Shown piece after piece: positions 34,788-40,869 of a stretch of DNA of 64,000 bases. This DNA comes from Escherichia phage vB_EcoM_G2469: sequence record MK327934.1, one strand, 5' to 3'. How positions within the stretch are numbered: position 1 is the first letter of the stretch; each line of letters begins with the position of its first letter. The position numbers and the translations under genes were made by a program. The notes under the pieces were generated by a model. The model was not told where the DNA came from, made no database searches, and saw nothing but the letters and a program-made list of their open reading frames with translations.

Positions 34788-35246
34788 TTATAGGAGGGTA
34801 GTGAGCACCTTATATAATGATTTGCCCATTACATATTCCCATTGAGAAGGTTTAATTAAAGCGAATGCATCAAATTCAGGAATCTGTCGTCCGTCTGGGA
34901 ATGTATGATAGGAATTACAAACACTGTTTCTGAATTGCTCGTGCTCTACAGGGATGGTATATTGGAACAGATGAATATTCTTATTGTCTGAGTAATGATG
35001 TTCACCTAGGTCTTTCAGGAAGGCAGGGTCATATTGTGTAAACCCAGTTTCTTCTTCGCATTCACGAATAGCGGCTTCAATAGGAGATTCGCCAGGTTCG
35101 ACACGGCCTTTAGGAATATCCCACCGATGAGCTAAAGAACCTTTAGGACGAGAACCAGTTACACGGCCCATGAATAATTCTTTATCTTCGGTAAGGAAAA
35201 TAATACCAGCTGATAGTTCTTTCACTTTATTTTTCTTACTCATCAT
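34788..35246 (-). CDS. nudE: Nudix hydrolase NudE
   Basis: 152 aa, Nudix box GRVEPGESPIEAAIRECEEETG. Confidence 0.85.
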   Translation of the reverse strand: MMSKKNKVKELSAGIIFLTEDKELFMGRVTGSRPKGSLAHRWDIPKGRVEPGESPIEAAIRECEEETGFTQYDPAFLKDLGEHHYSDNKNIHLFQYTIPVEHEQFRNSVCNSYHTFPDGRQIPEFDAFALIKPSQWEYVMGKSLYKVLTTLL

Positions 35247-35487
35247 CTCGGTCCCATGATTTGGCCATTAATTCGGACATAAATTCTTCAATGCGCGTTT
35301 CTTTAGATGGACTTTCACTATTAGAGACCGCAAGTTTGTAATCTGCAATAGGACAGAACATATCAAGGTCCATATTAAGATCGTCTTTGATTTTTTCTTC
35401 TGACACATCTTTATCGTATGTGTACAGATAACTATCACATGATTCTGATTTAATGTAAATTGCTATACTCATCTCAAATTCCTGCAT
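35236..35487 (-). CDS. hypothetical acidic protein
   Basis: 83-aa ORF. Confidence 0.45.
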   Translation of the reverse strand: MQEFEMSIAIYIKSESCDSYLYTYDKDVSEEKIKDDLNMDLDMFCPIADYKLAVSNSESPSKETRIEEFMSELMAKSWDRDDE

Positions 35488-35948: not shown

Positions 35949-36635
35949 TTACCAGCCTTCCATAGGGAATTCCAGATAAACTTGAGCGTTGACACGAATT
36001 TCATTGGTAATCTTTTTAACTCGGTCTGTATTACGAGATACACGTCCGAACCAACGCCATCCGTTACTAATTGCACGAGAACCAGTGTGCCATGTTTGCC
36101 AATCAAACTGAAGAAGAGTACGGTCTGGAGCTTCCCATTTCTCTAGTTCACCTTTTTCAATTTTTTCGAGGACTTCTTTGTGCCACTGACGATAGATAAG
36201 TTCGCCATCAGGAATCTGACTGAACTCTGCAGTTCCTGTTGCAAAATGAGTAGGACACACATCAGCGTTAACAAGACCAAGAATATGTTCAGACAAATAG
36301 CGAGGATTGTCATAATCTGGTTGTCCTGCTGTAATAAAGTGTTGACCGACTGGAATATCAGGGCGTGGTATGTCGTCATGGTGATATCCAGGAATAGCAG
36401 GATACCAACCAGGCATCAGCATGTGGACTCGTGAATCAAATACTACATCAGAGTCTTTCCAATCGTCAGGAAGATTTTGGATAAAGCTACGAGTAATTGG
36501 GCCGCCATTATCAAAAGCAAAATTCAAATCGCAGTTAAAGAACATAGGCTCGTTTTTAATCTGGTTGTTTTTAATCGCATGAGCAAAACCACCTACTGCA
36601 CGAGCTTGACTATTAAACACTTTAGAACTATTCAT
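35949..36635 (-). CDS. hypothetical protein
   Basis: 228-aa ORF. Confidence 0.5.
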   Translation of the reverse strand: MNSSKVFNSQARAVGGFAHAIKNNQIKNEPMFFNCDLNFAFDNGGPITRSFIQNLPDDWKDSDVVFDSRVHMLMPGWYPAIPGYHHDDIPRPDIPVGQHFITAGQPDYDNPRYLSEHILGLVNADVCPTHFATGTAEFSQIPDGELIYRQWHKEVLEKIEKGELEKWEAPDRTLLQFDWQTWHTGSRAISNGWRWFGRVSRNTDRVKKITNEIRVNAQVYLEFPMEGW

Positions 36636-36942: not shown

Positions 36943-37012
36943 AATATTCTCCTCATGTTTTGGTAGGACTACTATAACATAGTCCTATAATTGTGTAAAC
37001 AGTTTTGCGAAA

Positions 37013-37969
37013 TTATTTGAAAGGTTTTACCATATGGAAATTTTGTTTGAAACGTTTGACGTAATCGTCATGTCCTAAGCTTTGGTACATACTTACTACT
37101 TTGCTGTAGTTTTCCCAGGCGTATTCACGGAACCAACCGGAGGTGATGCTTGTGCAGACTTTTTCTAATGCCATCATGAAACTGGCTTCAGGGTTAATTT
37201 TAAAGTCATTAGGAATCTGAGAACGTTCTAATGCTAGTACACATGATTCTTCATATACACCGGCCAATTTGACCATTTCTGGTAACGATTCGAACTTCTC
37301 GCGTGAGGTCATGACTTCAGAACCGTCTTTCATATAAAATGTATAAGCCGGACGGTCTGTTAGTGCAATGGCTTCATGAATAGTATCATGGTCATATGTA
37401 TAGATGTCATCTTTAAAGAACGCACTTTTAGAAGTGTCAAGAACCGGGTGAGCATAGTTCAAGGTTTCTTTCTGGCGTTTCAGCATAATTTCAGTAAGTT
37501 CATCGTTCAGTGTAACACCTTTACCACGAAGATACTGAATATGGTTCATAGTCTTTAAAAAGAATGGATTATTTTTCTTGAAACGATGAGACATCTTAAT
37601 TGCAAGGCACATCTCAGGAGTTGCCCAGTAAAACCCGTTCAAACGGTCTTTAGTCAAATTTTTCTTGGCGTATTTTAAAAGGTCATAAGAAGACGTGAAA
37701 TCTTCAGGAGTGAGTTCACCAACTAATTCACGGACATTAGTGATTGCCGGAACAATATATGCTTCAAAATGAGTTTCGCGTCCATTATGGAAGCATTTGA
37801 AAACTTGGACATCAGGGTTATCTTGGTGAACATATACACCCATCATTTGATTTTTGAATGCATTCCAAGAACATTGGTCCGCAATAAAGTCCCAATCACT
37901 ATTTTTGATAGCGCTAGAATCAATAAGACCGTGATAGTGAAGTGCACGAGAACCAATAACCAACATCAT
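37013..37969 (-). CDS. hypothetical protein
   Basis: 318-aa ORF. Confidence 0.5.
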   Translation of the reverse strand: MMLVIGSRALHYHGLIDSSAIKNSDWDFIADQCSWNAFKNQMMGVYVHQDNPDVQVFKCFHNGRETHFEAYIVPAITNVRELVGELTPEDFTSSYDLLKYAKKNLTKDRLNGFYWATPEMCLAIKMSHRFKKNNPFFLKTMNHIQYLRGKGVTLNDELTEIMLKRQKETLNYAHPVLDTSKSAFFKDDIYTYDHDTIHEAIALTDRPAYTFYMKDGSEVMTSREKFESLPEMVKLAGVYEESCVLALERSQIPNDFKINPEASFMMALEKVCTSITSGWFREYAWENYSKVVSMYQSLGHDDYVKRFKQNFHMVKPFK

Positions 37970-37997: not shown

Positions 37998-38249
37998 TTA
38001 AATTTCACGACATGCGATATTATATTCATCCCAGAGGTCATCATGTGAAGCCTCTACCAAAGGAACGATTGTACCGTTTATGTCTTCATTATAAGGGCAA
38101 ATTGTACAGTGCGCATCTTCGAATCGGATGCCTTTGTGTTCAGATTTTTTATAACGCATATCGAATATCTTTGCAAACTTTTCACGAGTAATGGTTTTAC
38201 CAACCACTTTGGTTCCGATACTTTCGTAATAAATCATTGTGGACTCCAT
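37998..38249 (-). CDS. hypothetical protein
   Basis: 83-aa ORF. Confidence 0.45.
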   Translation of the reverse strand: MESTMIYYESIGTKVVGKTITREKFAKIFDMRYKKSEHKGIRFEDAHCTICPYNEDINGTIVPLVEASHDDLWDEYNIACREI

Positions 38250-38256
38250 TTGTTTT

Positions 38257-38295
38257 GATAGGACTACTATAACATAGCCCTATCTTGTTGTAAAC
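38257..38295 (-). promoter_or_regulatory. early-promoter cassette with palindrome around the -10
   Basis: Plus gataggactactataacatagccctatcttgttgtaaac. Confidence 0.4.
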
Positions 38296-38299
38296 TGTT

Positions 38300-38497
38300 T
38301 TAGCAAGAATAACTAGATGATACCCAGCCTTGAACAGTGATACTATTGTGGGATAATGAGATCGCGTCCTGGAGATTCAGACCTGCGTTATCTTCAATCC
38401 ATAATGTAACTTCTTCGCGTTCTTCTGTTGCAATTTGGAACAGGTTTTCCAGGGCAGCTACTGCCGTACGTACAGCACAATCTAATTCACGAGACAT
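38300..38497 (-). CDS. small protein, paralog family with C-terminal G-W-V-x-S-S-x-x-C
   Basis: 65 aa ending GWVSSSYSC. Confidence 0.45.
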   Translation of the reverse strand: MSRELDCAVRTAVAALENLFQIATEEREEVTLWIEDNAGLNLQDAISLSHNSITVQGWVSSSYSC

Positions 38498-38506
38498 ATG
38501 ATTTCC

Positions 38507-38779
38507 TTAACAAGTGTGAGAAGATGCAACCCAACCGCCATCTTCAAGGCTCAGGTTGTAGTCGTATTGGTAAACGTCGGCCCATTCAGCATAGCCGTTT
38601 TTTGTACAACGTTCAAGATCGGCTTTAAGATGTCCGGGTGAATGATAGGTTCCACCCATACCATAAGCTGGGTACAAGTCGAATGTTGTGTTTTGTTTAT
38701 CAGCAATTTCTTTGGCAGCCTCAATAGCTGCATAGATTTTTGCTACAGCTTCAGCCAGTTCGGTTTGTTCTTTAGACAT
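38507..38779 (-). CDS. small protein, same paralog family
   Basis: 90 aa ending GGWVASSHTC. Confidence 0.45.
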   Translation of the reverse strand: MSKEQTELAEAVAKIYAAIEAAKEIADKQNTTFDLYPAYGMGGTYHSPGHLKADLERCTKNGYAEWADVYQYDYNLSLEDGGWVASSHTC

Positions 38780-38788
38780 AATGATTCC

Positions 38789-39094
38789 TTAGCACAACGC
38801 TGAAGACGAAACCCAAGCACCTTCAGTAATAACGTAACCATTACCTTCACGCTTAACATCGCCACCATTATTTTCAATTTCATTTTTCATCCACTGGGAT
38901 ACGATTTCACCCTTAGGATAATAAGTACGACCGCTACCATAATCACCTACAGAAAATGATACGGCATATTGGTCTGCGATCTTTGTTGCTTCTTCTTCAA
39001 TACGTTCAGCTTGATTCAGAAGTTTATAAATTGCATCTGAAGCGGATTTGGCATCATTAAACTCTGGTACTTTAATTTCAATAATCTTACTCAT
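38789..39094 (-). CDS. small protein, same paralog family
   Basis: 101 aa ending GAWVSSSALC. Confidence 0.45.
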   Translation of the reverse strand: MSKIIEIKVPEFNDAKSASDAIYKLLNQAERIEEEATKIADQYAVSFSVGDYGSGRTYYPKGEIVSQWMKNEIENNGGDVKREGNGYVITEGAWVSSSALC

Positions 39095-39192
39095 TTTCTA
39101 CATTCCTTAATAAAGTTTTCTATTGTTTCATTTTCACGTCTAGCTAGGAGTTCATTATAACTAATCATTTGAGAAGCGTAAACAGCATAAAT

Positions 39193-39615
39193 TCAGTTCA
39201 GGCTTTTGCATCTTATTTCCTTAACGAATTCCATAGCTTCTTCATATTCATACTTTTTAACAGCTTCATCATACTGAGCTTTGGCTTTCGCGCACTGAAC
39301 TTTCCATTCACGAACTCGAGCTCTGTGATGACGGCCTTGGTACCAATATCCCACCAAGTTAATAGGCATTAATAAAAATGGCACAATAAACGACCCGGCT
39401 ATAATAAGTAAAAACACTGCATCAGACGATATAACTTCACTAGAATCTAAAACAGCTCCTATAATCATAAAGATTAAAAATGCTAAAGCTAAAATAGGGC
39501 CAAATAGTACTTCATTTGGGATTAATTTACGCTTGTATTCGTATGCCCAGGGCTTAATTGGCATGTACAGGGTTGGCTTTGACATATTCTCTACATTCCA
39601 TAATAAATTGCTCAA
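39193..39615 (-). CDS. hypothetical membrane protein
   Basis: 140 aa with hydrophobic core segments. Confidence 0.45.
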   Translation of the reverse strand: MSNLLWNVENMSKPTLYMPIKPWAYEYKRKLIPNEVLFGPILALAFLIFMIIGAVLDSSEVISSDAVFLLIIAGSFIVPFLLMPINLVGYWYQGRHHRARVREWKVQCAKAKAQYDEAVKKYEYEEAMEFVKEIRCKSLN

Positions 39616-40814: not shown

Positions 40815-40869
40815 TTGGTGGTTTATTATCCAACGAGAGCATTATACTCTGCTCTCAAGAGTTTGTAAA

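Follow-up and report, generated by a model that had tools for sequence, protein, structure and literature searches.

Three adjacent small genes of a T4-like phage encode acidic proteins that end in a common tail, W-x-x-S-S-x-x-C. This tail marks a phage-restricted family whose genes lie on the same strand as, and nearly always upstream of, a gene for a predicted nucleotidyltransferase (NTase) with the domains DUF7277 and DUF7275. We consider it likely that the small proteins and the downstream NTase are functionally linked in some way. As to the nature of this link, we tentatively favor a model in which the tail is recognized by the NTase and serves as an acceptor or pseudosubstrate.

The small-gene array and its surroundings

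The window, i.e., the whole 64-kb stretch of DNA analyzed, belongs to a Mosigvirus, a T4-like phage of the RB69 group, and over the 1.8 kb at this locus it shares 97-98% identity with Escherichia phages moha, pEB20 and numerous others. The following features are used below:

39154..39182, minus strand: early-type promoter-like site (TTTACG, 17 nt, TATAAT), about 60 nt 5' of the first small gene; a consensus match only
38789..39094, minus strand: 101-aa small acidic protein, ortholog of RB69ORF139c/138c; phrog_899
38792..38815, minus strand: W-V-S-S-S-A-L-C tail codons of the 101-aa protein, directly 5' of the TAA stop
38507..38779, minus strand: 90-aa small acidic protein, ortholog of RB69ORF137c; nearest to the family consensus
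38510..38533, minus strand: W-V-A-S-S-H-T-C tail codons of the 90-aa protein
38300..38497, minus strand: 65-aa small acidic protein, ortholog of RB69ORF136c; phrog_4882
38303..38326, minus strand: W-V-S-S-S-Y-S-C tail codons of the 65-aa protein
38266..38294, minus strand: early-type promoter-like site (TTTACA, 17 nt, TG-TATAGT) separating the array from the next two genes; a consensus match only
37998..38249, minus strand: 83-aa protein, phrog_3723; an intervening gene, not a member of the Cys-tail family
37013..37969, minus strand: 318-aa DUF7277 + DUF7275 protein, ortholog of RB69ORF134c; predicted MenT/AbiEii-like NTase

The preliminary description of this DNA had reported adjacent ORFs of 65, 90 and 101 aa with a shared tail, and they are indeed present at these positions, all on the minus strand. 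Consecutive small genes are separated by 9 nt; each is preceded by the Shine-Dalgarno sequence TAAGGAA, and the stop codon of one gene sits within the Shine-Dalgarno sequence of the next. The three small genes end 331-820 bp upstream of the NTase gene, on the same strand. Early-type promoter-like sites of the T4 kind (TTTAC[AG], 17 nt, TATAAT/TATAGT) occur on the minus strand at 36971-36999, 38266-38294, 39154-39182 and 40841-40869, where they precede gene groups and are spaced roughly 1-2 kb apart; it should be noted that they are no more frequent here than expected from shuffling. No finding suggests a virion role of the small genes; the region is of the early type, and a promoter-like site of this type precedes them.

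The RB69 counterparts (ORF139c/138c, ORF137c and ORF136c) are flanked by e.2 and e.3, in a part of the genome where the RB69 annotation names no T4 counterpart. In RB69 (69734-70040), the 101-aa ortholog is frameshifted into ORF139c (71 aa) and ORF138c, so that the main fragment is left without the tail. In most Mosigvirus genomes, RB69 among them, an e.3 homolog separates the 101-aa gene from e.4. This homolog is missing in the window phage; its place is taken by a 98-bp spacer with a promoter-like site (39095-39192), a difference of 239 bp, and Mosigvirus records carrying e.3 align to the window in two pieces. The e.4 homolog (39193-39615, minus strand), a predicted membrane protein, is labelled 'sulfurtransferase' in GenBank records F27, JK45 and JK36, a label for which no Pfam support was found. 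Its application to the small genes was rejected, since in related records it belongs to the e.4 homolog.

Three neighbors were also inspected. The 83-aa phrog_3723 gene is restricted to enterobacterial T4-like loci among those compared. A different 83-aa acidic protein, encoded beside nudE (35236-35487, minus strand), has homologs immediately 5' of tail-bearing arrays in Xanthomonas jumbo-phage-type loci (L008, L009, L014, L017, L018, L029 and L030), and may be a further component of the module. The 228-aa ortholog of RB69ORF132c (35949-36635, minus strand) has no Pfam match and contains the residues GYHHDD...WHTG, which, judging from the motif, could form an H-x-D...H metal site. Its similarity to a 218-aa protein encoded just upstream of the divergent NTase of DSS3_VP1 is marginal (E = 0.067), and it was rejected as a conserved partner, as it is not kept beside the module in distant phages.

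The three small proteins end in GAWVSSSALC (101 aa), GGWVASSHTC (90 aa) and QGWVSSSYSC (65 aa). No other ORF of the 64-kb window has the same tail; among the 161 ORFs of at least 60 aa, five terminate in Cys. The Ser/Ala codons of the tail are TCG TCT TCA, GCA TCT TCT and TCA TCT AGT in the 101-, 90- and 65-aa genes, respectively, and the terminal Cys codon varies between TGC and TGT. These differences in the motif codons are indicative of selection at the protein level. Together with the DNA identity of 45-54% among the three genes, they led us to reject the idea that the common tail stems from a DNA repeat or a recent duplication.

Paralogy is clear for the 101-aa and 90-aa proteins (BLASTP E = 2e-6), and both match phrog_899 (E = 1.8e-22 and 4.8e-19, respectively), the 65-aa protein matching phrog_4882 (E = 7.7e-37). 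The full core, consisting of a helix, the hairpin GDYGSGRTYYP and the tail, is found in the 101-aa protein (pI 4.69). The hairpin motif Y-G-x-G-G-T-Y reads DYGSGRTYY in this protein and AYGMGGTYH in the 90-aa protein; the 65-aa protein has the N-terminal helix and the tail without the Gly-rich hairpin. A hidden Markov model (HMM) built without 65-aa-type sequences gives 9.3 bits on the last 16 residues of the 65-aa protein and E = 0.04 on the same protein minus its tail. The 65-aa protein thus resembles the others almost only through the tail; the term tandem paralogs, applied to all three in the preliminary description, is appropriate for the 101-aa and 90-aa genes and less certain for the 65-aa gene. 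Pfam, NCBIfam and PADLOC searches found no known domain in the three small proteins. Weak matches of the 101-aa protein to the XkdF protease and to E217 gp32 were dismissed as chance, because they are seen in only 2 of 112 family members.

The tail-bearing family and its linkage to the nucleotidyltransferase gene

Using tblastn, we found relatives of the three proteins in 250-400 phage genomes, with homologs of the 101-aa protein in 397 phage records. In profile searches, the family comprises 206 clusters when grouped at 90% identity; at 50% identity, 998 cluster representatives match with E <= 1e-3, and for 402 of these E is <= 1e-10. No family cluster carries a Pfam domain, and a search for a characterized member found none. 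The database clusters phrog_899 and phrog_4882 are unannotated and record neither the tail motif nor the NTase linkage. A literature search covering the family names in Pfam and PHROG, the ORF designations in RB69 and the motif itself returned nothing relevant, and the small genes are known so far only as hypothetical proteins.

Family proteins are 60-175 aa long and acidic (median pI 4.56, net charge -7). Their consensus order is an N-terminal helix (..A...AE.IADE.G) with conserved Ala positions A22 and A26, a strand (.F.F), the hairpin AYGMGGTYYP, a variable linker that is often rich in Asp, Glu, Trp or Ser, and the ending GWVSSSxxC-COOH. The profile match extends to the last residue of the protein, and no part of the family is better conserved than the tail with its W, S, S and C. 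In the alignment of 112 sequences, G42, W83, S86 and C90 are invariant. Of 243 family sequences, 226 terminate precisely with W-x-x-S-S-x-x-C and 11 more have one extra residue, so that Cys is ultimate or penultimate in 237 of the 243. The few exceptional sequences are mostly truncated or frameshifted. A lack of the motif in homologs, which the preliminary description had named as grounds for refutation, was not observed, the W, S, S and C being invariant.

The fold is predicted, with confidence, to be alpha-beta-beta-alpha-beta, and in this model the tail block has a mean pLDDT of 85 compared to 93-98 elsewhere, which is compatible with flexibility. The strongest, though weak, fold matches are Phd/YefM/RelB antitoxins, and the modelled small fold is new. 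Additional W-x-S-S copies occur in the variable linker of 47 of the 243 members. Furthermore, the tail is found on differing bodies within the same arrays, namely on the 65-aa type, on a subfamily with an internal DW-x-N-S-S-C and a terminal W-x-P-S-S-C, and on short helical proteins (loci L033 and L037); in the farthest loci, short helical proteins end in W-N-S-S-D-C or W-N-S-S-N-C-F. The metagenomic protein P0082 (134 aa) is a tandem fusion of two family units, the first with an internal tail W-A-A-S-S-Q-S-C and the second ending in V-W-D-H-S-G-C-A-F.

Phages carrying the tail infect Xanthomonas, Acinetobacter, Pseudomonas and Myxococcus, and the tail was also found in MAGs binned as Saccharibacteria. 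A scan of bacterial genomes, one per species, covering 185,579 species, yielded five loci, all on MAG contigs; HMM-detected family members are present in three of them, and the other two contain only short W-x-S-S-x-C ORFs. The family and its module are phage-restricted and essentially absent from bacterial genomes; the idea of a bacterial toxin-antitoxin origin visible in genomes was rejected on this result.

The DUF7277 + DUF7275 gene is also located downstream of the small genes in Klebsiella phage F48, in VR7, in Phapecoctavirus phiWec190 and in the Xanthomonas jumbo phage XbC2. We examined this linkage in two sets of loci. The first set was obtained from IMG/VR with a degenerate DNA pattern for the YGMGGTYY hairpin, a search that is blind to neighbors. 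It returned 24 uncultured-virus loci, 18 of which hold enough downstream DNA, and 17 of the latter have a same-strand DUF7275 gene downstream of the array. In the sole exception (L022), a different gene comes next and then the stored DNA ends. The second set started from the enzyme, whose genes form more than 2200 DUF7275 clusters, and included more distant phages (Pseudomonas Otagovirus, Acinetobacter Lazarusvirus and Stenotrophomonas Menderavirus) and the five MAG contigs. At least one tail-bearing small ORF is present within about 1.6 kb in 32 of the 33 loci with a complete long-type DUF7275 gene, some of which have a further tail-bearing copy up to about 3 kb away. The tail-bearing ORFs are never on the opposite strand and are nearly always upstream of the NTase gene, with one to five of them per single NTase gene. 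The linked loci cover Tevenvirinae, Marfavirus, Phapecoctavirus, Otagovirus, Lazarusvirus, Menderavirus, the jumbo Mimasvirus and MAG contigs, and no other gene family is common to all of them. In no case was a family member found fused to the NTase.

The long-type locus without the family is that of DSS3_VP1, whose enzyme is 26% identical. The Cys-tailed family is likewise missing from a clade of short-type NTases (250-270 aa; actinophages and KVP40), represented by Mycobacterium phage WXIN, Streptomyces phage Faust, Gordonia phage ClubL and Vibrio phage KVP40 (L042-L045). These short-type NTases adjoin a different, beta-rich protein of about 100 aa (Faust versus KVP40, E = 6e-5), which was rejected as a family member (hhalign probability 0.3%). 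An NTase with a small neighbor may be a wider rule.

A Pfam scan of the 318-aa protein at E <= 1 returned DUF7275 and DUF7277 only, without a match to AbiEii/DUF1814 at the sequence level. Likewise, there was no PADLOC hit, no meaningful NCBIfam match and no PDB match by sequence. The best structural match is MenT1, followed by TM1012, JHP933-like and LnuA NTases. The protein resembles MenT by fold only, with 8-12% identity, and because the fold match comes without an AbiEii/DUF1814 sequence match, we call it MenT/AbiEii-like by fold rather than a family member. It shows the MenT-like NTase fold, including the G-[SG]...D-x-[DE] motif and the third acidic position. Across 58 diverse homologs, G6, S7, D25, D27 and E69 are invariant, and these correspond to the G-[SG]...D-x-D motif and the third carboxylate of Pol-beta-fold NTases. 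The helical DUF7275 domain also has many invariant residues (K125, H128, K139, R165, H174, H194, D195, H198, C272 and others), and C243 is nearly invariant, being Ala in L037. The 318-aa protein is thus predicted to be a MenT-like NTase with intact catalytic residues, and it is probably active. In other phages, the NTase gene is found near RNA ligase genes, a tRNA cluster or MazG-like/pyrophosphatase genes (L041 830-1810; L043 1857-2504; L044 4847-6112; L038 1052-1465; L045 2039-2359), a context that is compatible with, and hints at, RNA-end or nucleotide chemistry.

Possible roles of the tail

Among Pol-beta-fold NTases, GlnE, GlnD, MntA and CitX are known to modify proteins, and MenT toxins add nucleotides at tRNA 3' ends. 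We propose that the three genes encode phage-restricted, small, acidic, early-expressed proteins that would be partners of the NTase encoded just downstream. The predicted N-terminal helix is amphipathic, most members add a small beta-sheet around the Gly-rich hairpin (YGMGGTY), and the Trp would anchor the W-x-x-S-S-x-x-C-COOH tail to the fold. The tail would be the element recognized by the MenT/AbiEii-like NTase and would enter the acceptor site of the enzyme, where the hydroxyls of both Ser residues (or the thiol of the final Cys) may serve as acceptor or pseudosubstrate for nucleotidyl or phosphoryl transfer. A single enzyme could serve a variable set of one to five tail-bearing proteins. 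We infer the physical interaction, the role of the tail and any modification. This role is favored because the tail, and not the body, is invariant, because the motif must be terminal, because the tail recurs on different bodies and as internal repeats, and because the number of tail-bearing proteins varies per one enzyme. There are precedents for its elements: the 68-aa antitoxin MenA1, encoded upstream of MenT1, blocks the MenT1 active site (PMC10435456), and MenT toxins undergo Ser auto-phosphorylation, other MenT toxins being controlled through Ser phosphorylation (PMC11375011).

Several observations speak against the acceptor model. The spacing of W, SS and C varies among distant members, which is a poor fit with a rigid active site; the divergent NTase of DSS3_VP1 and the short-type NTases occur without the family; the likeness of the modelled enzyme to MenT is limited to the fold, at the low identity given above; and in the window, the array and the NTase gene, split by the 83-aa gene and a promoter-like site, are not tightly coupled. 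A further reading, which we regard as rather unlikely, takes the tail to be a transferable C-terminal tag that is covalently modified by a dedicated phage MenT-like NTase. The two Ser residues would be NMPylated or phosphorylated, or the terminal Cys would undergo some reaction, and this would represent a hitherto unknown phage protein-tagging system that activates or regulates a diversifying set of small acidic effectors of host takeover. Taken to its extreme, this reading would have the Ser activated and eliminated and the Cys then added, yielding a C-terminal thioether ring. The preliminary description had suggested a shared processing, modification or targeting signal, or a diversifying effector family. 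The occurrence of the tail on different middle parts in the same arrays fits a recognition or modification signal that is common to the members of a diversifying family; the conserved NTase neighbor had been missed.

The main rival of the acceptor model, which we judge to be unlikely, is that the small proteins are antitoxin-like stoichiometric inhibitors that bind the NTase mainly by the N-terminal helix and block its electropositive cleft, as MenA1 does, without covalent modification, the tail adding only affinity, stability or turnover. The order of small gene(s) followed by the NTase gene is the same as in MenA1-MenT1, and MenT1 is the best structural match (PMC10435456). Strong acidity is expected of an inhibitor that competes with nucleic acid, and the conserved helix Ala positions, as well as the top, albeit weak, fold matches to Phd/YefM/RelB, are in line with this rival. 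However, inhibition leaves unexplained why the strictly terminal W..SS..C is invariant and the helix is not, why the tail is present on different bodies and as internal repeats, and why there are up to five paralogs per enzyme; in addition, the module, unlike classical toxin-antitoxin systems, is essentially absent from bacterial genomes. The remaining explanations are less likely than the acceptor and inhibitor readings. An independent, host-directed action, where the proteins would be anti-defense decoys, signal-nucleotide sponges or metal-bridged oligomers, the tail would bind a ligand, metal or host protein, and the linkage would reflect co-transfer in an accessory early-gene cassette, is distinctly unlikely. 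Many phage counter-defense proteins are likewise small, acidic, early, copy-variable and diversifying; the NTase gene of the window has its own promoter-like site with another gene in between; and the Gly-rich hairpin together with Ser and Cys could form an anion- or metal-binding site. Nevertheless, the linkage persists across phage groups, always on the same strand and without any other common neighbor, so that hitch-hiking is hard to uphold, and there is no likeness to known sponge or anti-defense folds.

The position of the Cys raises another explanation. In DsrC/TusE, the hallmark of the active Cys is its location as the ultimate or penultimate residue of the C-terminal arm. A swinging arm of the DsrC/TusE or carrier type, with a reactive terminal Cys that shuttles a persulfide or an acyl or nucleotidyl group to or from the NTase-like enzyme, possibly on tRNA or nucleotides, would agree with the near-constant terminal Cys on an arm of small residues, with the RNA ligase, tRNA and MazG/pyrophosphatase genes near the NTase gene in other phages, and with the invariant C272 and nearly invariant C243 of the enzyme; we nonetheless consider it very improbable. 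Finally, host proteases (ClpXP, Lon, Tsp-like) might recognize the tail as a signal for degradation or stability, giving early proteins a short, regulated lifetime. Known C-terminal degrons require the extreme C-terminal position, where the motif must be placed too, and antitoxins are typically labile. Still, the motif is unlike known E. coli C-terminal degrons such as LAA-COOH, is conserved over very different hosts (from Xanthomonas, Acinetobacter, Pseudomonas and Myxococcus to the Saccharibacteria-binned MAGs), and also occurs internally. This explanation leaves the NTase linkage unaccounted for as well, and we regard it as extremely unlikely.

Significance and comparison with known systems

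MenT/AbiEii-like enzymes are so far known as bacterial toxins or abortive-infection effectors that modify tRNA ends. If the link is functional, hundreds of lytic phages (T4-like, rV5-like and jumbo) would carry an unrecognized two-part system in which a MenT/AbiEii-like enzyme is paired with partners of a new class, marked by their terminal Ser-Ser/Cys tail. Phages would then use an enzyme class that bacteria turn against phages, several 'hypothetical' early genes of therapeutic Mosigvirus-type phages would be assigned a role, and a new protein modification or a new control of NTases may emerge.

The mechanistic analogue of the acceptor model is HEPN-MNT, in which MntA oligo-AMPylates a Tyr near the C-terminus of HepT, so that a small partner encoded beside a minimal NTase is covalently modified by it at a conserved residue of its C-terminal region. 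In contrast, the phage partner does not belong to the HEPN RNases, Ser or Cys would replace Tyr as the acceptor, and the NTase is MenT-like and not of the MNT type. DsrC/TusE are also small proteins with a conserved last or second-to-last Cys on a flexible C-terminal arm; however, the fold of the phage family differs, there is no sequence, Pfam or structural match, and no sulfur-metabolism genes are nearby. RiPP/lanthipeptide precursors were rejected, because the neighbors contain no LanB/LanM/LanKC/LanL or radical-SAM maturase domains, and the 'leader' is a confidently folded domain.

The MenA1-MenT1 pair of Mycobacterium tuberculosis has no sequence similarity to the phage pair (PMC10435456). 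Compared to MenT1, the phage enzyme is larger and has the highly conserved all-helical DUF7275 domain. The small proteins are predicted to have a different fold from that of MenA1 (alpha-beta-beta-alpha-beta) and carry an invariant terminal W..SS..C, a tail that MenA1 lacks. Furthermore, the phage partners form arrays of one to five paralogs, and the module resides in lytic phages, not in bacterial chromosomes. Neither a MenA1 homolog nor a COG5340/AbiEi-like antitoxin, as in MenAT and AbiE, is part of the phage module. In AbiE and MenA3-MenT3, the toxins are DUF1814 NTases regulated through Ser phosphorylation (PMC11375011, PMC7450476), whereas the phage enzyme has no Pfam AbiEii/DUF1814 or PADLOC match, and the conserved Ser-Ser of the phage module is in the partner rather than in the enzyme. 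The pairing of an NTase with a small partner is already known from MenAT, AbiE and HEPN-MNT; the partner family, its Cys-terminated tail, the arrays and the restriction to lytic phages are new.
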